A DNA stretch of 17,563 bases from Lingula anatina (lineage: Eukaryota; Animalia; Brachiopoda), in NCBI GenBank assembly GCA_051362555.1, contig CM120643.1:30068494-30086056 (forward strand), written 5' to 3'. The notes below the pieces were generated by a model. It was not told the origin of the DNA and did not search any database. It worked only from the letters and a program-made list of their open reading frames with translations. A program made the position numbers and the translations under genes. Positions 1,358 through 17,563 of the stretch are shown one piece after another. The first letter of the stretch is position 1; each line of letters opens with the position of its first letter.

Positions 1358-2135
1358 TTGGGCGGGGGAGAGTAGGCAAACAACAGGCCGGACATCTTTT
1401 CCAAATATATAATTTGTAACACGAACACAGAGAGGAAATAAAGAGAAACATTTGCTTTATTCCACCAAAAGATGCGTTGAATGAGGTAGTTTTTATACTA
1501 TCCTTTAAAATTTCAGTTTTTATTTCACCTTGATATAGTTCGTTACCTGTATAAAGCATACTGAACGAACTGCTTTTTAGGTGTAGTTTGGTTTTTGAAT
1601 GTTAACCTTTAAATGTGAGTTGTAACTGCGCTTTGAAATCTCGCGTTGGTGTAAAAATGTGCAAATGGTTCATTCGACGTTTCAGCCAGATTACCGTCTT
1701 CGTTTTGCATGCCTGACAAAGGCAGATTTCGTATAGCCAGTATGGTATCAGTATGGTTATAACAGTATCGGTAGGCCAGGGCATAAAATATGTGCATCAC
1801 GTCCTTGGTTCTTGGTGCTATATGACTAATATATCGCTTGCATCTATCTTCATTCAGGAAGTATGTTAAGTCAAGTCTCTTGGGTTGGGTGCTGTGCGGT
1901 ACGTGGGTAAACAAATTTGAATGCAAGGCTTACACATCGCTAACGCATGCACTTATCAGCCACACGTAAACACTTAACAAGACACACATTGAACAAAGAC
2001 CTGCGTATCACTAGTATGTTTCAAATTTTAAGTACTTTTTTTCGATCAGCTCCGCGTCTTCTTGAAAGGCGGAGAGGGACTCCTTTTGTATTCATTCGCA
2101 ATCAACACGTCTGCGCGGCGTGTGAAACGGGTGCT

Positions 2136-2172
2136 TATAAAGCTGCTTGCCGCTACGCCATCTAGATCAGTT
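2136..2172 (+). promoter_or_regulatory. Core promoter (TATA box + initiator) of the double-knot precursor gene
   Basis: TATAAA at 2136-2141 and TCAGTT (metazoan Inr consensus TCAKTY) at 2167-2172, which puts the predicted +1 A at 2169, 33 nt after the TATA start. The region is locally GC/CpG-richer and is followed by a GTAGGT donor at 2207. Confidence 0.7.
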
Positions 2173-2206
2173 GGCACCATTACTGTCAAGCCGAAGCCAC
2201 GCCGTG
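2169..2206 (+). other. Non-coding exon 1 (5' UTR); intron 1 = 2207-2338
   Basis: Runs from the Inr to the GTG|GTAGGT donor. The next strong acceptor is ttttcttgttgcag ending at 2338. There is no ATG in exon 1 or in 2339-2501. Confidence 0.6.
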
Positions 2207-2501: not shown

Positions 2502-2613
2502 ATGGCAGCTTTCCAAATTCAAAGTTTGCACACTTGGATCCTCGCCTTGACACTTCTAGTTTGTTTGATGATGTGCACGACAAGAATTCTGGCTTCAAAT
2601 CTCGATGGAGCAG
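2502..2613 (+). CDS. Exon 2 coding part: signal peptide MAAFQIQSLHTWILALTLLVCLMMCTTRILA-SNLDGA
   Basis: ATG in strong context (ACAATGG), hydrophobic core WILALTLLVCLMMC, probable cleavage after ILA, donor CAG|GTATGT (phase 1). Confidence 0.85.
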
Positions 2614-5600
2614 GTATGTTATTACATGATTAATCTTAACTGAAAGGGGATAATGCATTTGAATGATAGCAATCATAACAGAAGCCATGTTCAGTGCATT
2701 CTTAAAGGGAATCGCGTTCGTGTTTAGACTGATATTTGTCAACACATATTCCATATTTTGGCAATGTTATATTGTTCGTATATATAAATGCAAATAATTG
2801 CTATAAATATTTTAAAGTGAAATCCTTAACGTTAAGTAGTCAAATACCGTATAGTAGAACCATGGGTCTATTAAACTTCCTCATAAGACTTAAGCGCCGC
2901 GTTTTGGTGTTGTTTAGACTGTATAAAAAATCCAGCCAGGGAGTCAGATAAAAGAATTAATTCCCAAGTCATAACAATATATTGTTATTGCCTAAGCATT
3001 AATTGAGCTTTTGCGTGTGGGATGTTTTGATATATACGTAGTCACCGAAATAGTCGTACTCATCGAAAAAAGCAAAAGGAAAATTGAAGAAACAAAGATA
3101 CATTTTTTGTCAAATAATAGCAAATGAACGATACACAGAGTTATGGTACAAAGAACAACAGTAGACTTATATCCTTATCGGGTAGGGAAAAGTGATTACA
3201 CTGGGGAAAGAGATGTTGGCAAAAAGTGTTGCCTTAATATTAGGATATTTAAATATTAAACAAAACTGGAGCAAAGCTCGGTTGCATCTGTTGGAACCAA
3301 GCCATTAGCTCTGGAGCAACACCACTTATCCGACAGTTCATAATTCACTCCGACCAGCACACATTATAACCCATCACGGCTTATTTAGGAGGCACTAATT
3401 ACGGGTCGTGTGGCAGATAACATTTAGAATGCTTCAGTAAATATACCGTAGTAAATCACACAAATCGAAAAAACATTTTTTTAATGATAAATGAGCATGA
3501 GATTTCAAAACTTTATTAGAAGCACGTCGGATTCATGTCAGAAAGTATCTTTTTAAAGGAACTAGAAATCAGGCAGAATGAACCTGGAAAATATAAGACA
3601 GAAGCAACGTGAGAGTTCGAAGATTGTCGGAAATTACCGTATGCGTTATTAAAAGAACAATTTGCATGTCAATGCCGGGGCAATATGTGCTGAACTGTAA
3701 GAATGTTTCATGCCTGCGTCAATTAAGGACATTGGTAAAGCCGGCGGCCTAAGCTACTGTTTAAAAATTCATAAAGAAAATTGAATGTTTTCGAAGCTTT
3801 TGCACGATAGATTCCCCCAAGCAATAATCAACCACTAATTAGGTTTCGATCCGAATATTTCAATTTCTTGTCAGGAGATATCGCGTAGCCACTGACTAGT
3901 CGATTAGCCCTTCAGTGGGCCCTAGTCATTTACGGGATAGGCTATGTCGGTCTCACCCGTGCAAAATAACACGGTGTCATGCCATCAAGAATATTTACGA
4001 TTGTCATAAAAAAGTATAGTAAAAGAAGTCTGTATCTTTTCATTCATAAATCTCTGTTATAGTTATAACAAATGTATTATTTCTTGCAGTTTCAGTACAA
4101 AGCACAGACCGAAAGTGAAACTGATACTTCATTTTTCTCTATGCTTAATTAAAATATTTGCAATGAAATAAAAAAAAGTTTATAACAGCAGTGACGTCAA
4201 CCCATTCATTAAGATTACGACACAGAACGCTAACATCAGTCGAATGCTGTGCTTGTGATAAGTTAACGAATCTAAAATGCGAAGTTTATCTTACATAATG
4301 GACAATGGGTATTAGAGAGCATGATGTGCGAAGGCAAACTAAAAAGTTGAAGCAAGCAAAACTACATTGGCATGGCTAACGCAGTTCAAACATCCCAACG
4401 TGTACGTGCTCTGATTTGTGAAACAGTTTAGGTTAAACTACCTTCCGATACCATTTTAGTCATATTTGCAGGAAATGTTTTAGATGCACATCTGGCGGTC
4501 GATCTGAAAGGTTTTAAGTATCTGTAATGCTTCCCTTGGCGGCTATTATTGTGATCTCCAGTTCAGTAGGACCGGGAATGCAGTTTAAGGCAGGGGAAAT
4601 GCCTCATTCATCAGAAATGACCCTTAATAGCTCCGTGAAGTGAATAAAGCCATATAATGATATTTTTGTCAATACTGACATTGAGAAAATGTATAAAACT
4701 TGTATTTAAGTCACTTTTCGTTCTGTGTATAAACACTGACAACATGAAAAACAGGGGAGAACGCAAATATATTGGAATAACTTAAAGAGAGCACAGTAGA
4801 GAACTTTCTTTTTTTGGCATTATTTTCTCCTTCTGGTAAATTATGGAAACAATTGTTTGAATGATTAATTTGTTTTTATTGATGCGCACTTGATAAAATT
4901 GGCAAAACAAAATCGCGTAAACACCAGTAGATATGATTGACTTTGATGAGAATATTCACTTATAAAAAGTTTATCACAACGAAAACCCACTACATCAAAA
5001 GTATTATCTGTCCACTGAATCATAAGGGTCATTCCTCCATGGTAAGTAAGCAATATTTGATAAAAAAGCAAAAATTTCTCTACGTTAACGGTGTGCGCCA
5101 ACGATGCCATTCACTCAGATTTTATCCGTTCACTTATTCATCCTTCAAAACCGATTATCTTTCACATGATGCAACTTTTTAGAAATCTTATTGATATAAT
5201 ATCATACATTTATAGGAATAATGAAAGGGAGTAACAAATTTTACCCCATAATATTTATTGATTTTTTTCCTTTTTTCTTTTCTTTTCTTTTCTTTCTTTT
5301 TTTTTTCTTTTTTTTGGGGGGAGGGGGGGTGGTGGTGGAAGCCAACAGCCTAAAACACGTTTTCTGAGAAAATTAAGATTTTTGTCATAACCACTTCTAA
5401 TTCAAACGAGGATTTTGGGGCATTTTTCATACTGTTATACAAGTGATTGCATTGACAAAAGTCTTATTTGTATCTGCCTGATTGCTTTGTTGCAAAATGC
5501 AACATATGTGTAAAGGCAATGTACTTAAATACGAAATGCGAAACGAGAATTGTTTGTAATTGATGCTGCCTATTTGCAAGGTTCATTAAAGGCGGTATAA

Positions 5601-7710
5601 AAAAGAAATATTATAAAATACATGAGTTCTCGACTATACTTTGAAGTAACATACAAAGAGGTGAGTGAGTAGAATGGAGCTGATATGCCACAAGCGTATT
5701 AGATTCGACAGCTGCTGGTCCATAGGGAACACGAAAGGCTCATTTTTACCAATGAACCGTCTTTGAAAAAATCTATAAAATGTGACAAAAACACGATTGT
5801 CTCACCTAAGGTAATAATATTAATTAACTAATTTTTGTGAATATCTCGCGTGGCATTTTTGCCTACAGCGTTATGTCAATTAAAATGCGCAACAGTTTCA
5901 CGCGATCATCTTACAGTTTCAAGTTTGTATCTCGAACACAAATACCAAAAATACAGTGATAAGTTCATAATTTCAGGAAAAAAACAATCGTAATTATCTC
6001 CGCCAAGGAGGTTATGTTTTCACCCCTGTTTGTTTGTTTGTCTGTCTGTCATCAACATAACTCAAAAAGTTATGGACTGATTTTGATGAAATTTTCAGCA
6101 ACTGTCAGAAGTTGGCCAAGGAACAGATGATTAGTTTTTGGTGGTGATCCGGATCAATAATCATTAATAATCAATAATATTCAGAAATTGCTGCCTTGGC
6201 GGAGGTCTGCGCTCTCGGAGTGCTCTTCTAGTTTTGGTAAAATTTTAACGTTAAGGTGTAGCCCAACTCTGTGTGTGAAGCTGCATAGACACGAAACACA
6301 CTGTATACTTATTTGGAGAAGAATGTTTTTTTATTTGTTTGTTTGTTTTGCTGGCTTATTTGAAATTCAACAGTTATAACCAAGAATCTCTTATACAGAA
6401 AAAAAAGCCCAAACAATTTAACCCCAAGTGCTTGGTACTGAAGCATGTGTTTGTACGTGAGTGGCGGGAAAGGTTGCAAGGTAGGCCTAATCTTCTGTTA
6501 TAACTATACATCTTATTGACAAATTTATACTGTGTGACACTTCATCTTATGCACCAGTCTGACAGCAAATTGAACGCATTCTCCAGCGGCGTAGCCTCGG
6601 TGGAACTAAACTCAAATAGACTGTGACAAGATATTTCCATTAGTTCAATGGCTGTCAATTATCAAACTTGGAATTATTTGGATACTGCTATGATATACAC
6701 CTTTTTTAAGTATACACAAATGACTTTACAAGAGGTATATCGCTGTATCGTATAGTGGATTACTCATTTACCATCCAAAATTGATACAATTTAAGCATAA
6801 CAAAGGACCTTAGTTCATTAGATGAGATTAGTGACTAAATTTGGAATCCTTTTTATTGTGAAATATGCAGTCCCATAAAATAATTATGACTCGTCAATGA
6901 TTTATTAGAAAAATCCTACAAGTCAAGTTGTGCTCTCTCCCGTGGCCTTTTCGGTTAAAGGCAAATGGGAAATTCGTGTTAAAACAATCAAATGCAATTA
7001 GTATGCTGTAAATTGGAAAATACATCGCCTTAAAAGCATCTAAATGATGTTAATTAATTTTTGCGCCTGCAAATGGCACAAAAATATACTAATAGAATTT
7101 TAACAGTTAAATGTCACAGGCCAAAGTTAATCTAATACAACTTTAACAGTTAAATTTCACAGGTCAAAGTCAATCTAGTAATCTATTTAACTATAACATG
7201 GGATCGTAACCTATTAAAATCCAATCTGCTCTTGGCAAACTTAAGTTTAGGCACATTGCTACTTTTCTACATGTATCTTTTGTAGTCAATTTACCTAGAA
7301 CAAGAAGCAGTGCAAGGGTAGTTGGATCATAAACTAGTGGTTTTGTGAAGTGTTTTAGACAGTATAGAGTCATGGGATGGGTTCAGTATGTTGTTACTTC
7401 TATTTTCAGACAATGACGACGAAATTCGCCCACTGGAAGATACACAGGAAGAAGAAAAAAGGTAATAAGCGTTTTTACTAATCGATAGGTAGTCTTCGTG
7501 CTTAGTTTTTTTTCTGTATTGTGTTTGTTTGTAAATATTAAGAGAAGAATAGGATGGAGCTTAAAATATTTACTGTCTTGCAGTGTTGTCATTTCATATG
7601 AGTAGGCGATAATATTGAATTCATACTAATTAAAATCTACACATGACGTTATTTTTTATATCAGCCTCGTAGAACATAGTCACAGTGACGTGACACTTCT
7701 TCGTGCTCGA

Positions 7711-7760
<50 letters not shown>

Positions 7761-9585
7761 TCCAATTAACCGGGACACAAGTCATGGCATTTAGATGTGG
7801 AAATGACGTTATTATGTCTCATGGGGTCATGGGCTGGGTCTTAATCCTTCATCTGGTTCACAATCTTCGTGGTATTTGTTGATTTATTTTCCAATAACAC
7901 ATTTTTTGTATATTTTAATATGTTGTTAAATAAATGCGACAGTCTTTCAGAACGGTCAAATTTGTCTGACCTTAAAGGCCCTAGACATACTGCAGTGGCT
8001 TTTCGAAACACATTTGTACATTTAACTATGGAGGCATTTCTCAGGCCACTCAAGGTGACCACATTTGGAACAATGGACAATAACGGATACGATCTCCCCA
8101 AACAATCTCTTTGGCTAACCCCTAGAGTATCGTTACCCAGTTTAATCAAATCTCGCTGACGTAGGCTTAACACGAACGCTTCCGTTTTCGACATTTGGAA
8201 GCGACAAAATATGGGATAAAATAAGTAGAATCTTCGGAGAAACAGAAGAGAAAAAGGGAGGCAGGTGCTGGTTTAGATTTATTCAATTACCTTTCTTCTG
8301 CCAGAATGACCCAGCGAATGTTCACGGTCTCACGGGGAGCGCCATTTCAGTACCAATACCTTGGTTTATTATGAAACCAGATGTTTTGTCTCACGGGCTA
8401 TTTCCAGACTGTTTTTGGCTACAAAATGAATTCAAGGAACAAACCATTAAGGGCAATTCCATGTCCTTATCTTGATAGATTCTCTTTCCTTCAAACACCA
8501 AATACGCGTTGTTAGAATGCGAAATACGGGATTATTTTCTATTCAAATAAAGGGTGGAAAAGTGTCGATTATATAACACCACATTTCTCCAAAGTCAGTA
8601 ATTGCTTAGGGAACTATCAGATAGGAATCTACTGTAAGCCTAAAGTGGAACTGCTGACAAACACCTAGAAGGGCTAAACACAATTGCTTTTCCTTTTAGG
8701 AATTTTTTGTTTCCATGTATTGTAAGCCTGGGGAGCGAAAGGTATTCGGGAATTTTTATTGTTCTGATCCTCTGTTACTAATCAACAGGACAATGATGAA
8801 TACAGCAAGGATGTATGCCCTTTATGTATACTAACTCAAACTACACGCAACCCCAGCTGTGCAAAATTCCCTCACTGTTTTGAGTATCAAGTTTTTGTAT
8901 TTTTAAAACCTTAAACAGTCACATAAACCCCGATGAACTTCAACATTTTCAGTCAAATCTTTTTACTATGTGCATGCTTGGAATTTATGGAAATGGGTGT
9001 TCTGTTTTAACATGCATGTTTCTTGATATTCGGCGATGGTTACATTCAGTCTAGGATAGAAGATAAATGTTGGGTCTTAGCTGCAATAATGTTTTCCATT
9101 CCCGTAACGGGACCCTATTTTCTTGCTGGGAGTGTCCATTATTTGCACTTTTTCTGTTATTGTGTTGACAATGGAGCGAAGCGTAACAGCAGAGCATCGT
9201 TATATACTAGTTCTTACAAAATCAAAAATACAAACATATAGACTAATATGTTCCGCACAACATTCATTTTCAAGAATCTACAAGTGTGTACTAATAAATA
9301 TATTCCCCATCCGTCTCATCCTACTGTTTTTGCCATTATTACTATAGTTATTATTATCATTATTTTTTTTATTATTGTTGTTGTTGTTTACATATTCACC
9401 TTTTCTTCAACTTGGAAATATTTCATAAAAACATTGCTGTTGCTTGTTGGTGTTTAGAATATTTATGATAACTTAGTCCCCCCCTTTTATGTGATTTTAT
9501 TGAGGTGAGGTATTTATGTGAGGTATATTTTTGCTACATTATCTGATGATAACAAAGCGGATTGTTGGCTTTTTGCTGTTGATGT

Positions 9586-9644
<59 letters not shown>

Positions 9645-11363
9645 CTCCCATCACATTGAGTTTGATTAGAATACTAACTTGCAGCTGTTTATTGTTTTTG
9701 TGATATACAAGTGTACTGTGTGTTACAATTTTCCCCTAGGCGAGGGAAGGTTGACACTCTAGAAATAATTTTTCTAACGCGATTTCACACAAAATTGTGG
9801 AATAAATCAATACTGTGGGCAGAGCATGTAAAGTCCACGTATAAGACCATTAGAAAAAGACCAGTATGCAAAATTTATTAAGTTCCATTTAATGCAAGAA
9901 AAAAGTGTTTCACCATACGCGTGGCTGACTCTTATGACCACCGTAATGGAATACATAATGAACCTACAATACTCCATACTCTCCATGCTATTATCGTTGA
10001 ATTATCTGAATATTCCATATCATAAAAAACACAGTTTGACATTAACTTTTTAAAATTATATTACTTACTTATGATTTCTGACCGTATTATTTCACTTGGA
10101 CTGATTCACGTTGGTTTTCTCTCTGATTCATTTTCATTACACAGTATGTCGAATAGATTCATGTTATCATTGCACTCCAAACTTTGCCATGGCTACCTTT
10201 TGTGTCTAGCAGATCAAATAACAAATTGTTTTTGTTAATCACTGACCTAGATATATTGTTTAATAAAATATTTCATATCTTTTTATTAATAGGCAACTCT
10301 ATTATCCGGGTGTGTACGACTACTGGAAGAAATATTGGACCAAAAAGTAAGTGCTGGGAAGGGCGACTTGCTTATAGATTCTGTGAAGATGAGAGCATTC
10401 GAACAGTTGACCTGTGTACAATGTTCTGTATGTGTGTGCATGGTGGAATTTTATGTTGGCATTGGCAGGTGCGCGCTCGAGAGAGAGAGAAAGAATAATA
10501 GCATTGGTATGACACAACAGTTCATATTTCCTGTCTGAAACACAGAGCAAATGCGTCCTCCAACTTGACATACCCAGCCTCATAGACATTCCATTCTCAC
10601 AAAGCATCCGCTTCATGTGTTGGTGAACTAAATAATTGATGCCTGACGAGCCTATTAGATGATATTATGTTTAGAATCTCCCGGTAGACCGTTACAAGGC
10701 AAATAACCTTAGGGTGGATATCTTAAGTAATTACTGTCTGAACATGCGTCCCAAGATTTTATCCTTATATCGGTTCATTTTCCCAGGGTGCTTAAGGGGT
10801 ATTGGAACTTTATAATGTACTTTGTGTCTCCTCATTAACCCAAGCGAAAGTATATTTGGCAAAAATATATTTTTCACATTTCTCTAATGTGATATGCTTA
10901 TCTTAATATATTATTGCAATTAAAAATAAACACTTTTAGACCACAAAGTCCCTTTTCTGATCCTTTATTCACTACCCCACCCTTAAGCACATAGGTTGGC
11001 CAGGCGTTAATCGCCAATTTCGCTGCTGTGTAAATTGGTAAGAGATAGTGATCATTTTCCGATGTAATTCTGTAACTCAGTAAGATATTATCATGATAAT
11101 TGGCATGGTTGACGACTATGGTGTAAACCCCCATTTGCTTTCACAGCGTTTGATTTTATATTCTTTTGTTTAGAAAATTTGAACCCCTAAATGTTGCATT
11201 TAAAAGGCATTATTTCGCCTCTTTTCTGTTTAAATCAAGAGTGATCATCGCAAGATGGTTTCCTGACTCCAATTTGTAGAACAAATAACTATGTTTAAAT
11301 AATCCTTAAAATGGCGAGGGAGATTTGTTTAACACTGATATTATAGTTTTCAACCCCCCCCCC

Positions 11364-11404
<41 letters not shown>

Positions 11405-14400
11405 GCTACTGTAACGTCATCTGCCCGAATAAAGAAATTCATAATATCACCTAATTTTTGATGCAACAGAATTAATCTCTTAACATGTCAATGTTTATTC
11501 CTGTATTATCTAAGCAGAGGAGAAAAAATCTTGACGAACTAATACCGATCCCCCTTAATCTTGAAGAAGAAACCAACAAGACGTCGATCTTTTTTCACAC
11601 GAAACGGGTCACGTTGCACAATTTACCCAAGTAAAAATGAAATGTATAGTTTGTGTGGTCTATAACTGCATGTCACCTACAAGATGTAATGGTGTGGAGT
11701 CTGGCAGTCTACACTTTTTTAAATAATGGCAGTAAGAAAAACAGCAATTGTTCGCTAGTGCCCCTCTTAGGCCTATCGTCGTGACTCAAATGAGTTTGGT
11801 TGATACTTAGAAGCACATGTCTGTACATGAACCCCATTTGTTGATATACATGCATTTATAGTAGTTTCAGTACATTCAGGGTACCTTCAGAAACAGTCGG
11901 GTTTTCAAGGGCGTGGCACAATATCTCAAACATTTGTCCTTCGGCTATAAGGTTCTGCATCATTGACCTACAGCTTTTAAAAAAATCAGATTTAGCACAA
12001 TTAATAAGACTAATGTGATCTTACTTTTTCACGTGAAGCTTATCTTATGTAGTAGTCTGTCTGGATTTACTTACAGGACCCGTTCGCAGAATTTCCCTTT
12101 AAATATAATTTAATGGACCAGTTTCGTTTACACTTGGCTAGTTTCCTTATAAAATCCCTTAGAAATTTAACGCCAAAGTATACCTTTGTACATTTCATCA
12201 CAGTGAAGGGATATAGCATGCCCATGGGGTAAAAGCACAATCTATTTAAGAAGAAAATACAATCTAAACATATCTTTCTGTAGCCGAGCCAAATTCTGAT
12301 ATTTTGAAGAAGAATTTCATCAAATCGAAGTTTTGACCTTTCTCAATGGAGATGCAAATAACATATGAAATCCGTTCCTTATGGCAGGGGCGGATCCAGG
12401 ATAATTTGAAGGGGGGGGGGTCCGCGGATGCAAAGCCGACCCCACCCCACTTGGCGTGGGGTTAGGGGCCTGTTGAAGGGCACCGAAAATTTTTAGTATT
12501 TTAAAGGGCGATCAGTGCCATTTGGTACAGTTTACAACTATGATTCAGCTAGTCAAAATTCTGATTTCAAGAGGGGGGCCAGAAATCGAAAGGGGGGGGG
12601 GTCAGAACCCCCCTGACCCCCCCTAAACCCGCCACTGCTTTTTATAGAATAATTAAAATAAAAATTCTTGTTTATTGAAATAACTAATTAAATAAGGATG
12701 TGTCTTGGCAAATGAAAATGTTAGTTCGTAATGTTTTTGATAAGAAATAGCTAGCTCACCTGCAAGAAGAAATAGCAACTTAATAAAGATGTCTGTATAG
12801 TCGATTTGGTCAAGCACAAGGTAAAGACTGAGAAACGGGTGCGGCAAATGACTGATCTCTGATCATGTGTTGTGGAGGACCTCCCTTTTACTTGAGGGGG
12901 ACCTTCCTTTTACTTGTGGAAGATCTCCCTTTTACTTGTAGGGGACCTCTTTATTATACCCCGACCCCACATAACATATCAGAACTATATCTTTTATAAT
13001 AAAACTCCAGGAAACTATGGGCTCACATCTTTGGATAACGCAATCTGATTACACTTTTTTATACTGTGGTCTCTGACAGTGAGAGAGAGAGCCAATCAAA
13101 TCAGAGGGTCACCACCTGCCAAAGTCAAAGACACGTGAGAAAGAATGAATAAAAGGGAAAAAGTAGGAAAAATAACCAATGAATATATGAGATGGTAATA
13201 ATCTTATACGTACAGCTATAAAGGGGACCGGTATGCCTTTATACCCCATCACACACAGATTTTACAGTGTACGTTTAATTCGAAATTTCCTTTTTGTGAC
13301 TACTAGTATATAAATATATTATAACCATTTAAAACGGCATGCTGAGTTTTTAAAGAGAAAGGTAGATTGATGCCGTTGACAGAAAAGACACAGCAATTAC
13401 TCCATTAATTTTAATACAATTTGAAAGTTTCTTTTGTGTGTGATTTGAAAATTTGATGTTAGCTGTTGCCAGTTATAAGGACGTTTTATGCACTATTACT
13501 AGTGCAAATCGCCACCCAGGCGGCTTTGATACATTGAACACAGACACACGCACACACAACTCATTCGTACTTATAGATATCAGACATAGAAAGGATAGAA
13601 AAAATTCCGAAAATAAAATTTTAATTTCTTATAAACCAGTCTCCCCAATTTAACAAACTTGCACTTTATACACCTTTAAGTTATTTTTGTGGTTAATAAT
13701 AGTTTTAAAAAGATCCTATACGTCCAAATGTGCACTACTGGAAGCTTGAAGAGATGGTTTTCTTGGCTGGTTAGCCCCACATTATCGTGAGACGATGGCT
13801 GTAGGCCCCAGGGGCGGATCCAGGATTATTTTTATATTATTTTTATTCGAAATTTCCTTTTTGTGACTACTAGTATATAAATATATTATAACCATTTAAA
13901 ACGGCATGCTAAGTTTTTAAAGAGAAAGGTAGATTGATGCCGTTGACAGAAAAGCTGACGCAGCACTTCGGAAATATTAATCCATTAATTTTAATACAAT
14001 TTGAAAGGATTTCTTGTGTGTGGTAAGTGAAGGTTTGATTGATTTACCTAGCTTTCACCAGTTTTATCATTTCAAAGAGATGACGTTATGAAAATTTGAT
14101 GTTTGCTGTTGTCAGTTATAAGGACGTTTTATGCACTATTACTAATGGATACGTCCAAATGTGCACTACTGGAAGCTTGAAGAGATGGTTTTTTTGGCTG
14201 ACTAACCCCACATCATCGTGAGACGATGGCCGTAGGCCCCAGGGGCGGATCCAGGATTATTTGAAGGGGGGTTCGCGGGTGCGAAAAGGACCCCACCCCC
14301 ACACCCATTTGGCGTGGGGTTCGGGGCCCGCTGAAGGGCCTCGGAAATTTTTGGTATTTTAAAGGGCGAACGGTGCCATTTGGTACAGTTTAGAACTATG

Positions 14401-15255
14401 ATTTAGCTAGTCAAAATTCTACAAGAAGGGACCAGAAATCAAAGGAGGGGGGGGGGGTCAGGACCCCCTGCCCCCCCTAAATCCGCCACTGCTATGGCGT
14501 GTTGAAATTCGAAACCAAAGGGGGCAATGATCCCAAGGTATATCTATCTGTGGAATTAGCTTGCATAAAGCTGTTCCCTCCCCGCCAGAAAAAATGGACT
14601 AAGATTGTAAATAAATAAACGATTCAGCAAAATAAATTAATTGGCGCATCCGAATGGAAAATATCCTGGCAAATTTTTCGGCTCTTAACAGTATGTTTGC
14701 GTCAATATAATAATTATTTTTTGCTTATCTCATTCCATAAGGTATGTTGCATTTTTCGTAGTTCACGCAAGAAAAAAAAATTGGAAAAAAGGAAAATGAA
14801 AACCATAAAGGTTAGCGACATTGGTGGATTGAGCTAAGAGTGGATTGGCTGAAAAAAGAACTTCGTTGTCAATTAATGTTATCTGTATGTGCTTTCCGGA
14901 GCTCCTAATAATCCGACGGCGAAGAGAGACAGCCACGAAAGTTGTACTAGTAGTAATGTAAATTATGGTAATAACGCCTAATACTACTTGTTAGTGTTTT
15001 TCTGAGAATCTGTCATATTTGTAATCTCTTTACAGGGAAGAGCGCCCATGGGAGAAATTACCAAACACTAGTTGCTACCGTAAGAAATGCCAGTCTACAA
15101 AAGACTGTTGCCAGCGCTACAACATTTGCGACCCATACGTTAAGATCTGCTACGATTGCTGGTACAAGTACCCGTGTAAGACTGACGCCAACTGCTGTCA
15201 GAAGTATCCCAACTGCAAGATAGGAAGGGACGGCAAAGGCCATTGTTATTCGTAA
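2502..15255 (+). CDS. Spliced CDS join(2502..2613,7410..7461,10293..10346,15036..15255): 145-aa secreted prepropeptide with tandem cystine-knot (ICK-like) domains
   Basis: Manual exon assembly gives canonical splice sites, compatible phases (1,2,2) and an uninterrupted reading frame. The architecture is coherent: signal peptide, acidic pro-region, KR, then a 90-aa mature region with 12 Cys. Confidence 0.88.
5262..5338. repeat. (TTTTC)n/poly-T tract abutting G-runs
   Basis: Pyrimidine tract 5262-5315 followed by ggggggagggggggtggtggtgg. Confidence 0.8.
5994..6235 (+). mobile_element. Non-autonomous Helentron/DINE-1-like element (HINE)
   Basis: Subterminal inverted repeats CTCCGCCAAGG (5998-6008) and CCTTGGCGGAG (6194-6204), a GTTT/GTCT microsatellite (about 6027-6050), a 3' hairpin GCGCTC-TCG-GAGTGC (6209-6223) and an end CTAG-TTTT. 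This is the established HINE layout. Confidence 0.8.
7089..7180. repeat. 43-bp tandem repeat, about 2.1 copies
   Basis: ctaata(g/c)aa(t/c)tttaacagttaaat(g/t)tcacagg(c/t)caaagt(t/c)aat repeats at 7089 and 7132. Confidence 0.8.
7410..7461 (+). CDS. Exon 3: acidic propeptide DNDDEIRPLEDTQEEEK(R)
   Basis: Acceptor ttacttctattttcag, donor AAG|GTAATA, 52 nt, phase 1 to 2. The AG|G junction completes the KR dibasic site. Confidence 0.82.
7713..7759. repeat. Poly-T (47 nt)
   Basis: Uninterrupted T run. Confidence 0.95.
9589..9642. repeat. (AT)27 microsatellite
   Basis: Perfect AT dinucleotide run. Confidence 0.95.
10293..10346 (+). CDS. Exon 4: QLYYPGVYDYWKKYWTK(K), aromatic/cationic N-terminal segment of the mature peptide
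   Basis: Acceptor atctttttattaatag, consensus donor GTAAGT at 10347, 54 nt symmetric phase 2-2, in frame with both neighbouring exons. Confidence 0.75.
10796..10982. mobile_element. Possible Kolobok-type MITE with TTAA target duplication
   Basis: TTAA|GGGGTATTG ... CACTACCCCACCC|TTAA. Short imperfect TIRs. The reconstructed empty site is the palindrome GTGCTTAAGCAC. Confidence 0.45.
11354..11403. repeat. C11-A39 compound homopolymer
   Basis: A C run directly followed by an A run. Confidence 0.95.
12385..12637. mobile_element. MITE copy A (253 bp), hAT-like termini
   Basis: Imperfect TIRs CAGGGGCGGATCCAGG ... CCTAAACCCGCCACTG with G/C-run subterminal regions. Homologous over its full length to 14240-14491. 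Confidence 0.8.
12870..12952. repeat. 22-bp minisatellite, about 3.8 copies
   Basis: Units similar to ttgtggaggacctcccttttac start at 12870, 12892, 12914 and 12936. Confidence 0.85.
13278..14262 (+). repeat. Diverged tandem duplication: unit 1 about 13278-13831, unit 2 about 13845-14262
   Basis: Both units start with attcgaaatttcctttttgtgactactag and end with gtaggccccaggggcggatccaggattattt. They differ by reciprocal indels. Confidence 0.9.
13809..13831. mobile_element. Truncated 5' end of the same MITE
   Basis: CAGGGGCGGATCCAGGATTATTT is identical to the start of copy B and has the same upstream flank. Confidence 0.7.
14240..14491. mobile_element. MITE copy B (252 bp), same family and orientation as copy A
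   Basis: TIRs CAGGGGCGGATCCAGG ... CCTAAATCCGCCACTG (13/16 match). Shares internal blocks with copy A, such as gtattttaaagggcga, gtgccatttggtacagttta and agctagtcaaaattct. Confidence 0.8.
15036..15255 (+). CDS. Exon 5 (last coding exon): two tandem C-C-CC-C-C modules, stop TAA
   Basis: Acceptor gtaatctctttacag. Translation is EERPWEKLPNTSCYRKKCQSTKDCCQRYNICDPYVKICYDCWYKYPCKTDANCCQKYPNCKIGRDGKGHCYS*, with 12 Cys in two ICK-type patterns and higher GC than the flanks. Confidence 0.92.
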
Positions 15256-16164
15256 TCGGCAGGAAGCCCCCTCACAAGATGTGTTATAATGAAAAATGGG
15301 TTTTGTCTTAGTTTAACATGTAGTATACATAATTTTCTCTTCACGTTGTACAGTTAAATGAATATTCGTTTTCCTTTACATGGATTTTTTTTTTACTTTA
15401 TACATCCATTATTATGCACGAACACAAGTCTAACTTTGTTTGAAGGCACTATGTTCTTTGGTAGACAATGATTTTATACATATGCAAAGCAATGGCATTT
15501 TGACTAAATCATACAAGCATATGCGCCGGGTTTGCAAGTTTGGTTCTTCTGACAGTTCGGAAAAGTCAACATAACAGTCCTCAAAATGCGTAGATCTATT
15601 GTTAATCTTAATATTGACAGAAATTTTGCCTGAGAACGAGGGGAATAGAAACAAACTGTTTCAGTTGAATATAAATTTATATTATAAATATATTGTTATA
15701 GATTTACCCTGCGTACCGGTACAATAGTATTTACGTTCGTGCATTTGGCTAAGTCGGAAAGTAGGGGATGTTTGAAGTAGCATAGGCTGTTGTACAGTAA
15801 TAATAATCTGCATGTAACGGCAACTCAGCAAGATGTATTTCTACAAGTCATATACATGTGCGGCACATCCAACAGTTTAGTGAACGTATTTCATCAGTGT
15901 CACAGTATTTTTTCTCTTTTAAGGTAAAAGTAGGTTTGTTTTGGGAAAAACGACGGATTGTGTGTCACACGTTTTGTGTATCACCTTTAATTGCTCTCGT
16001 CTCCATACAAGTTGTATTGTCTTACTGAGTTCATGACGTGTTTGGTACATTGAAAATGAAATCCACATAACTTCACCAGCCGTATTACATTTCATTTAGG
16101 TTAAGATATTAACTTTTTTGTTTTTAGAGAAAATTTTAACGATAACTGTTACTGTAAATTGGTC

Positions 16165-16170
16165 AATAAA
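16165..16170 (+). terminator. Probable polyadenylation signal of the double-knot gene (3' UTR about 0.93 kb)
   Basis: First canonical AATAAA I found after the stop codon. It is followed about 17 nt later by CA and a GT-rich ctgtgtttg. Confidence 0.5.
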
Positions 16171-16987: not shown

Positions 16988-17244
16988 TCAGCAACTACAG
17001 CCATTGAAGTTTTTATCTATTTCACAGATGGATTGAAGGGTTGTCCAACTGCAAGGCACGTCATACCAAACACCTGAATTAGGTGTGAACGCAACGCAGA
17101 GCTCATTGGCATTATTTGGTTCATTCGTCGACCAGTTGATATAACTTAAAGTCGCGTTGCCTTTACTGGAGTGGACATAATTCTGGTTGTCGCCATCGAA
17201 GTCGTAGGCATCGTGCAGAGTAAATTGATTGGCGTCTCCGCTTT
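16988..17244 (-). CDS. Last coding exon of a C-type lectin domain protein (upstream exons not found in this window)
   Basis: Minus-strand acceptor catttaatgtttag (AG = 17246-17245), phase 1. Translation is SGDANQFTLHDAYDFDGDNQNYVHSSKGNATLSYINWSTNEPNNANELCVAFTPNSGVWYDVPCSWTTLQSICEIDKNFNGCSC*. CTLD hallmarks present: Y-x-N-W, EPNN, E-x-C-V, W-Y-D-x-x-C, I-C-E. Confidence 0.9.
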
Positions 17245-17563
17245 CTAAACATTAAATGATCAGTGACAGTAAAGTCATTAATTAATTAATTGGTCGAATA
17301 GCATATATATACATTTCATTTTGACACCAAGTGGGATATTGGTAAATTATAAATGCTCGAATTTGAAATGAATTGTTACTAAGTAGTTCATGTTTTTAAA
17401 ATAAATATACTCTGCGTAATTCGACTAGGCCCTGAAATGCAGAATCTTGTTGACATCATATCTTGATAAAAGTTTTGCATGTTTGTCATTTGATAAATGA
17501 CAGAAAAATATGCCATATCTCAACAACGAGGACCTCCATGAACGCATCCATGTTTTGTGTTTC

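Follow-up and report, generated by a model that had tools for sequence, protein, structure and literature searches.

An uncharacterized Lingula anatina gene encodes a likely secreted, predicted double-knottin precursor with relatives in four lophotrochozoan phyla

The gene and its transcript

The DNA analyzed here, referred to in the following as the window, is a 17,563 nt stretch of the genome of the brachiopod Lingula anatina (GCA_051362555.1, contig CM120643.1, positions 30,068,494 to 30,086,056 of the forward strand). It contains a plus-strand gene for a 145-residue precursor with two tandem cysteine modules. An earlier, sequence-only reading had described this as a hidden gene of five exons. 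The gene is real, but it is not hidden, since it is already in RefSeq: its product is XP_013388825.1, annotated as uncharacterized LOC106157656 of Lingula anatina, 145 amino acids long.

The first coding exon (window positions 2502–2613) starts with the ATG, encodes a predicted signal peptide and the start of the pro-piece, and ends at a phase-1 donor. After an intron of 4796 nt (2614–7409, phase 1), the second coding exon (7410–7461) encodes the acidic pro-piece and ends within the Arg codon of a KR pair (residues 54–55). It is followed by an intron of 2831 nt (7462–10292, phase 2) and a third coding exon (10293–10346), which encodes an aromatic and basic spacer peptide and ends within the second Lys codon of a KK pair (residues 72–73). 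Each of the two phase-2 introns thus interrupts a dibasic pair in its second codon. The last intron (10347–15035, 4689 nt, phase 2) precedes the last coding exon (15036–15255), which holds a PWxxLP leader, both cysteine modules and the stop codon. Module 1 (15073–15150) has the pattern C-x4-C-x5-CC-x5-C-x6-C and module 2 (15157–15246), behind a 2-residue linker, the pattern C-x5-C-x5-CC-x5-C-x9-C; these are the spacings originally claimed. In the six-frame translation of the window, the C-C-CC-C-C pattern occurs twice, both times in this exon. All three introns are GT..AG, and the exons add up to 438 nt, or 145 codons and a stop; the database protein has this length and includes the translated exon pieces. 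By crude scores, the true donors rank 3, 28 and 13 among 794 GT sites, and the true acceptors 13, 22 and 15 among 351 YAG sites.

Nine RNA runs carry the species label, and seven of them were aligned to the window. Reads supported each of the three predicted junctions (2613/7410, 7461/10293 and 10346/15036). At the first, 49 reads of run X7 skip 4796 nt; the aligner set the joint at 2609/7406, 4 nt to the left, and we infer that an allelic difference at 2610 shifts the canonical junction by this amount. At the second, 51 loose read ends after 7462 in X7 read into exon-4 sequence (the third coding exon). Ahead of 10291, the loose ends (52 in X7, 52 in X8 and 41 in X9) carry the sequence of exon 3, so that either side of the intron is linked to the exon expected across it. 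The third junction was joined by 44, 34 and 37 (+9) reads in the same three runs. These reads rule out a chance chain of exons.

The ends of the transcript are less sharply defined. In exon 2, the 5' untranslated region (UTR) is placed at 2339–2501 from X7 reads (8 reads at 2451, 23 at 2488) and acceptor scoring, with candidate acceptors at 2339, 2466 and 2482. A putative TATA box (TATAAA, 2136–2141, plus strand) and a GTAGGT donor at 2207, ranking 12 among the 794 GT sites, delimit a putative non-coding exon 1 with an approximate start (2165–2206, plus strand). No RNA reads fell on 2142–2333, so the fifth exon of the earlier model is not confirmed by reads, although box and donor leave it plausible. 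The donor at 2207 is also used by a 443-residue gene model, P0004 (window 2032–2206 plus 2482–2501), in which a methyltransferase-like upstream open reading frame is fused to the gene by way of its promoter region and 5' UTR. This model was without read support here and was rejected; the fusion is probably an annotation artefact. The 3' UTR extends from 15256 to approximately 16180, with continuous depth to about 16135 in X7, X8 and X9 and an AATAAA signal at 16165.

No reads covered the coding exons compared in X1, X5 and X2, and X4 contributed a single read to each of two listed positions in the exons. The gene thus shows restricted expression, clear in three of the seven runs, all from one study. 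Over the last coding exon (220 nt), reads and window differed at two listed sites, one of them synonymous, plus a minority allele at the first base, while the listed differences numbered 37 in about 830 nt of 3' UTR, and four non-synonymous and one synonymous in the signal and pro exons; a further 78 weaker rows lie outside the listing for the last coding exon and 3' UTR. Reads from study P3 differed from the window at about 4–5% of 3' UTR sites (15256–16100), with additional indels, mostly in all reads, which suggests a divergent population or a cryptic species.

A family with twelve conserved cysteines

The hydrophobic core of the predicted signal peptide spans residues 13–23. The pro-piece has a net charge of −9, and the mature part, which is basic and aromatic, one of +9. 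A phmmer search of 1.84 billion representative sequences returned 50 proteins at E ≤ 1e-3, 39 of them at E ≤ 1e-10, so the protein is not the isolated one it had seemed. Organisms were looked up for 21 of the 50 clusters, and the 29 others may extend the range. Fifteen of the 21 had an organism name, and all fifteen are lophotrochozoan: Lingula (two genes), Lineus, Octopus (LOC106874007), Crassostrea (LOC105328304 and LOC105342155), Ostrea, Pecten, Mytilus, Physella, Capitella (CAPTEDRAFT_199259 and _221754), Ridgeia, Paralvinella and Helobdella, which represent brachiopods, a nemertean, molluscs and annelids. One or two loci were seen per named species, a count that is not a genome census.

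For alignment, the fragmentary sequences P0052 and P0053 were left out, as was P0010, and P0007 was replaced by P0058, a named member of its cluster, giving a set of 47 sequences. All twelve cysteines were kept in all 47, with the C-C-CC-C-C pattern twice per protein. The spacings are 4, 5, 0, 5 and 6 in the first module (C5–C6 being 6 in 46 of 47) and 5, 5, 0 and 5 in the second; seven spacings are invariant, as is the linker of two residues from cysteine to cysteine, and only the last loop varies (6–23 residues). P-W, L, D, D-C-W and P positions are invariant or nearly so, with PWxxLP and CxDCW present in most members, while 10–20 of the 37 non-cysteine positions between C1 and C11 are identical to Lingula in 12 named relatives. 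Each of the 12 full precursors examined has an acidic pro-region, a KR site and a basic and aromatic spacer of 11–46 residues. The spacer also accounts for 8–13 residue differences between isoform pairs in Octopus, Pecten and Mytilus. The two modules are homologous, because their in-register column score was reached by only 1 of 100000 permutations, and no intact single-module member was present among the 47 full matches.

The divergent second Lingula paralogue, P0049 (LOC106175766), has neither the PW nor the DCW motif, and its C5–C6 loop is 4 residues long. Ten long precursors (P0016, P0018, P0021, P0022, P0023, P0027, P0031, P0035, P0039 and P0051, of which only one, from Helobdella, is named) carry a second conserved motif, C-x-C-x-C-E-T-[KR], which usually follows directly on a KR and lies a long way upstream of the knottin domain. 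The motif may mark a second peptide or a site of dimerisation.

Two further protein searches added nothing new: a near-length word search was null, the full precursors being outside its length range, and an alignment word search yielded five already-known proteins among 8000 candidates scored. No Pfam family matched the Lingula protein above cut-off; a sub-threshold match to Toxin_23 (E 0.022) recurred weakly when 44 family members were searched, in 11 of them, where the best E value of 0.025 again missed the cut-off. Searched by sequence, the single protein had no match in the PDB, and the family profile gave a weak one to omega-atracotoxin-Hv2a (E 0.024). The Octopus and Helobdella members bear an automatic granulin label in UniRef. 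Granulins have four CC doublets. Family members have only two, and none of 44 matched a granulin model at E ≤ 1, so the label was rejected; an SMB label was likewise ruled out by the Pfam search of family members.

The literature was searched for the family by motif and by accession. Accession searches gave no match, the motif matches in papers had no bearing on the family, and the supplements of PMC10501145 contained no motif match. One chiton and two Platynereis members stand unnamed in raw candidate lists of the PMC6425005 and PMC3890597 supplements. DREP families (PMC13311285, section 2.6) did not fit, having one or two disulfides per peptide. No paper naming or describing the family was found, motif searches of supplements included, in a survey that did not extend to subscription journals, ConoServer, KNOTTIN, ScrepYard and some supplements. 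ScrepYard, which collects secreted tandem cysteine repeats automatically (PMC9885460), may list these proteins without comment. With no Pfam family, close PDB match or naming paper, the earlier impression of a family without a name held up, and the proteins apparently form a deeply conserved, undescribed double-knottin prohormone family.

The conserved W, Y and F positions and the aromatic and basic spacer, together with the restricted expression, would also suit a structural peptide that binds the matrix of chitinous chaetae, shell or tube through an aromatic face. Aromatic knottin faces are known to bind chitin. However, the family has members in Octopus, Lineus and Helobdella, which are shell-less and chaeta-less animals, and the read depth was modest, and we regard a matrix role as improbable.

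Predicted fold

An AlphaFold2 model from 48 sequences showed two knottin-like lobes (predicted local distance difference test score 83.5, predicted template modelling score 0.59). The same strand-turn-hairpin pattern appears in both predicted lobes, with the hairpin on Cys V and VI and a short strand near Cys II. The full-precursor model placed a signal helix at residues 4–34 and a low-confidence pro-region before the same domain. Sequence and fold prediction together thus back the claim of a secreted-type prepropeptide with two tandem modules resembling the inhibitor cystine knot (ICK).

When each half was compared with ICK peptides by VIA-align, the root-mean-square deviation (rmsd) was 1.8–2.5 over 29–35 residues, with weak Z scores of 2.1–2.5; lobe 1 aligned to EETI-II at 1.8 over 29 residues, and lobe 2 to Hc3a and PcTx1 at 2.4 over 35. 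Foldseek gave no match at E ≤ 0.001, and the ESM Atlas no feature match at ≥0.9 and no structure match at TM ≥0.5. These null searches do not show that the fold is new.

The whole domain aligned best, though weakly, to Draxin (Z 4.1, rmsd 3.9, 56 residues aligned), which was also the first Foldseek row (E 0.21); Bv8, Dkk4-N, Dkk1-C and colipase followed at Z 2.1–2.7. Such matches might indicate that the secreted peptide is not a stored neuropeptide but modulates development or axon guidance by binding to the ectodomain of a receptor, in the manner of Draxin, Dickkopf or prokineticin. All Z scores are below 5, however, and a common disulfide-directed hairpin core would yield matches of this kind. 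The acidic pro-piece with its KR fits a prohormone better, and the colipase-fold domain has ten conserved cysteines (PMC6425005) against twelve here. We consider this type of modulator quite unlikely.

Intron conservation and selection on the mature domain

A scan with a 14-sequence annelid-type alignment confirmed 110 metagenome loci, of which the best 80 were used. C1–C11 is uninterrupted in 77 of these. These include 54 distinct cores. In 50 of them, a phase-2 YAG lies at a distance of two or three codons ahead of PW; other offsets score at most 3. The upstream WGH motif is contiguous in 2 of the 54 loci, and in 9 it ends at a phase-2 GT 0.7–2.3 kb upstream. With 50 of 54 phase-2 acceptors and nine upstream exon ends, the last intron is conserved in phase and place. 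The codon that it splits is often not a basic one in these annelid-type loci.

The median dN/dS was 0.37 for 902 of the 1431 pairs of the 54 distinct loci (those with a pS of 0.05 to 0.5; cysteines were left out of the calculation and paralogues pooled), and pN exceeded pS in 18 of the 902. To judge from these ratios and from the few read differences in the last coding exon, the mature domain is under purifying selection, the reverse of the pattern in toxins and in the mussel CRP-I peptides.

This result bears on two of the three roles that had been offered, toxin, antimicrobial and endogenous modulator. As a bivalent toxin, the peptide would target the ion channels of other animals, whether prey or predators, in the manner of DkTx, Hi1a and Xt3a. 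It shares their cysteine framework, both lobes are in one exon, as in Hi1a-type genes (PMC13172734), and each lobe aligns to spider ICKs (rmsd 1.9–2.8); the weak matches to Toxin_23 and omega-atracotoxin-Hv2a also point this way. Conserved members occur, however, in bivalves, in a chiton and a freshwater snail, and in annelids that feed on deposits or live at vents, and the family combines purifying selection with low copy number and an invariant 2-residue linker. These host animals are largely non-venomous. Because the mature domain is the conserved part, a toxin is the least likely of the three roles, and a very improbable one.

A defence peptide, that is, an antimicrobial, chitin-binding or protease-inhibiting knottin like mussel CRP-I, has more in its favor. 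Horseshoe-crab tachystatins are comparable defence knottins. The Lingula mature region is basic and aromatic, squash protease inhibitors are among the weak fold matches, and multi-MgCRP-I precursors have the same pre-pro-KR plan, with phase-1 then phase-2 introns and all modules in the last exon, 2–4 residues apart (PMC4558851). In CRP-I, on the other hand, the pre-pro region is conserved and the mature region is hypervariable and positively selected, with about 67 loci confined to Mytiloida (PMC4558851); here the reverse holds, and Mytilus has its own conserved member of the double-knottin family besides. Some relatives are acidic, with domain charges that span −4 to +10 over the family, unlike what would be expected of a uniformly cationic antimicrobial. 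A defence role is, in our judgement, unlikely.

Neighbouring elements

A C-type lectin exon with an EPN motif lies on the minus strand at 16988–17251 (Pfam Lectin_C, E 1.2e-4) and converges on the 3' end of the gene. An interspersed repeat in the first intron (5990–6235), which resembles Helitron-associated elements, had reads and loose ends in all four runs aligned there, as its many other copies are transcribed. Two copies of a GC-rich element resembling miniature inverted-repeat transposable elements (12380–12630 and 14240–14490) are 90% alike over 117 nt. The last intron also contains a recent local duplication (13270–13830 and 13840–14260) with blocks that are 89–98% identical.

A candidate signalling prohormone

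Of the three roles offered, an endogenous modulator fits best. We infer, with about an even chance of being right, that the 145-residue precursor, likely secreted and cut by a convertase, yields a predicted two-lobed cystine-knot peptide that serves as the animal's own signalling ligand, similar to a neuropeptide or hormone. The signal peptide would be removed near residue 31, and the acidic pro-piece (−9) would offset the basic charge of the mature part (+9) while the precursor folds and is stored. Cleavage after KR 54–55 would release 90 residues, which further cleavage at KK 67–68 or 72–73 may trim to a 72-residue domain and a short aromatic peptide. The two lobes were presumably born by duplication within one exon and fixed in place by the 2-residue linker, and together they may present one conserved aromatic surface (PWxxLP, CxDCW and [YF]P) to a conserved receptor or channel. 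On the predicted model, one compact two-lobed ligand is the best reading, favored over a flexibly linked bivalent toxin.

Several observations weigh against a signalling role. Most of the 14 named members inspected lack a C-terminal amidation signal, and motif searches did not find the family among the named precursors in the part of the PMC8557429 supplement that was searched. The intron signature of the CCWamide precursors, described below, holds only in part, because the split codon is often not basic in annelid-type loci, and MgCRP-I genes also have the phase-1/phase-2 plan (PMC4558851). At the level of the whole domain, the fold is matched best by Draxin, Bv8, Dkk and colipase, and these matches, although weak (Z 2.1–4.1), point to protein-binding modulators. 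The runs without expression could reflect other tissues or a more divergent population. Orthology is not established, since the tree was poorly resolved, with 8 of 44 inner branches well supported; having too few alignment columns, it was dropped as evidence of orthology.

More tentatively, and with somewhat less confidence than in the signalling role itself, we propose that the family may be an overlooked pan-lophotrochozoan neuropeptide or hormone, active as a rigid double cystine knot with a 2-residue linker that predates the split of brachiopods, nemerteans, molluscs and annelids. As an endogenous double knottin outside venoms, it would act on a receptor or channel of the orphan type, and it may be a survivor of the gene pool from which lophotrochozoan defence and venom knottins such as CRP-I and the ICK conotoxins were recruited. 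The characterized double-ICK peptides in the cited papers are arthropod venom toxins, and the tandem peptides of mussels evolve fast and are confined to one lineage. A double knottin with deep conservation, low copy number and the layout of a prohormone would bring in a family not found named in the parts of the lophotrochozoan neuropeptide surveys searched, where members stand unnamed in raw candidate lists. It would also give orphan receptors a candidate ligand and provide a compact scaffold of two lobes. If the peptide is an ordinary immune or matrix peptide, the value lies in a new domain annotation.

Comparison with known systems

The closest presumed functional parallel is the CCWamide/agatoxin-like group (PMC8557429). 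Its precursors are short and have a signal peptide, a non-conserved piece, a dibasic site and a C-terminal cysteine-rich peptide in the last exon; a phase-2 intron lies in the basic codon of the cleavage site, as in the Lingula gene, and some of them have a Tyr-rich spacer between two KR sites. The group is conserved in non-venomous lophotrochozoans and consists of orphan ligands. It differs in having one 8-Cys domain with an amidated aromatic end, whereas the present family has two 6-Cys modules and no amidation. Prohormone-3 and CP3-r are likewise secreted orphan precursors having a C-C-CC-C-C module with C-x5-CC, but their other spacings differ; prohormone-3 contains additional modules of other kinds, CP3-r combines a single module with a Wamide end, and neither has a PWxxLP or CxDCW motif in the sequences available (PMC8557429).

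In construction, the family resembles multi-MgCRP-I of Mytilus, which combines a signal peptide, an acidic pro-region and KR with tandem C-C-CC-C-C modules 2–4 residues apart in the last exon (PMC4558851). The MgCRP-I consensus, C(X3-6)C(X1-7)CC(X3-4)C(X3-5)C, does not accommodate the C4–C5 spacing of 5 (47 of 47) or the C5–C6 spacing of 6 (46 of 47) seen here, and MgCRP-I is restricted to Mytiloida, with some 67 loci and a hypervariable mature region (PMC4558851). The Lingula gene, by comparison, has an extra spacer exon and a mature domain conserved across four phyla.

DkTx, Hi1a/Hc1a and Xt3a also consist of two homologous tandem ICK-type modules, with a single-exon duplication as in Hi1a (PMC13172734), but they are venom components found in restricted groups of arthropods, and some have been reduced to a single domain (PMC9950431, PMC13172734). 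Their linkers of 12, 6 and 4 residues in DkTx, Hi1a and Xt3a, respectively (PMC9950431), compare with 2 in all 47 sequences here, allowing for slightly different definitions of the linker, which makes it doubtful that the peptide is bivalent in the sense of DkTx or Hi1a. Nor are tandem knottins as rare as had been supposed, considering multi-MgCRP-I, Xt3a and the SCREP set. The Draxin C-domain, the cysteine-rich domains of Dickkopf, prokineticin-Bv8 and the colipase fold may resemble the model with its two small disulfide-rich lobes, to judge from weak whole-domain alignments (Z 2.1–4.1); the colipase fold has a ten-cysteine pattern, against twelve cysteines with two CC doublets here, and there was no sequence match and no significant Foldseek match. 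By analogy, the Lingula precursor would work like an orphan prohormone of the CCWamide type, and its construction is that of multi-MgCRP-I or of a double ICK from venom, but it departs from each of these in defining features.

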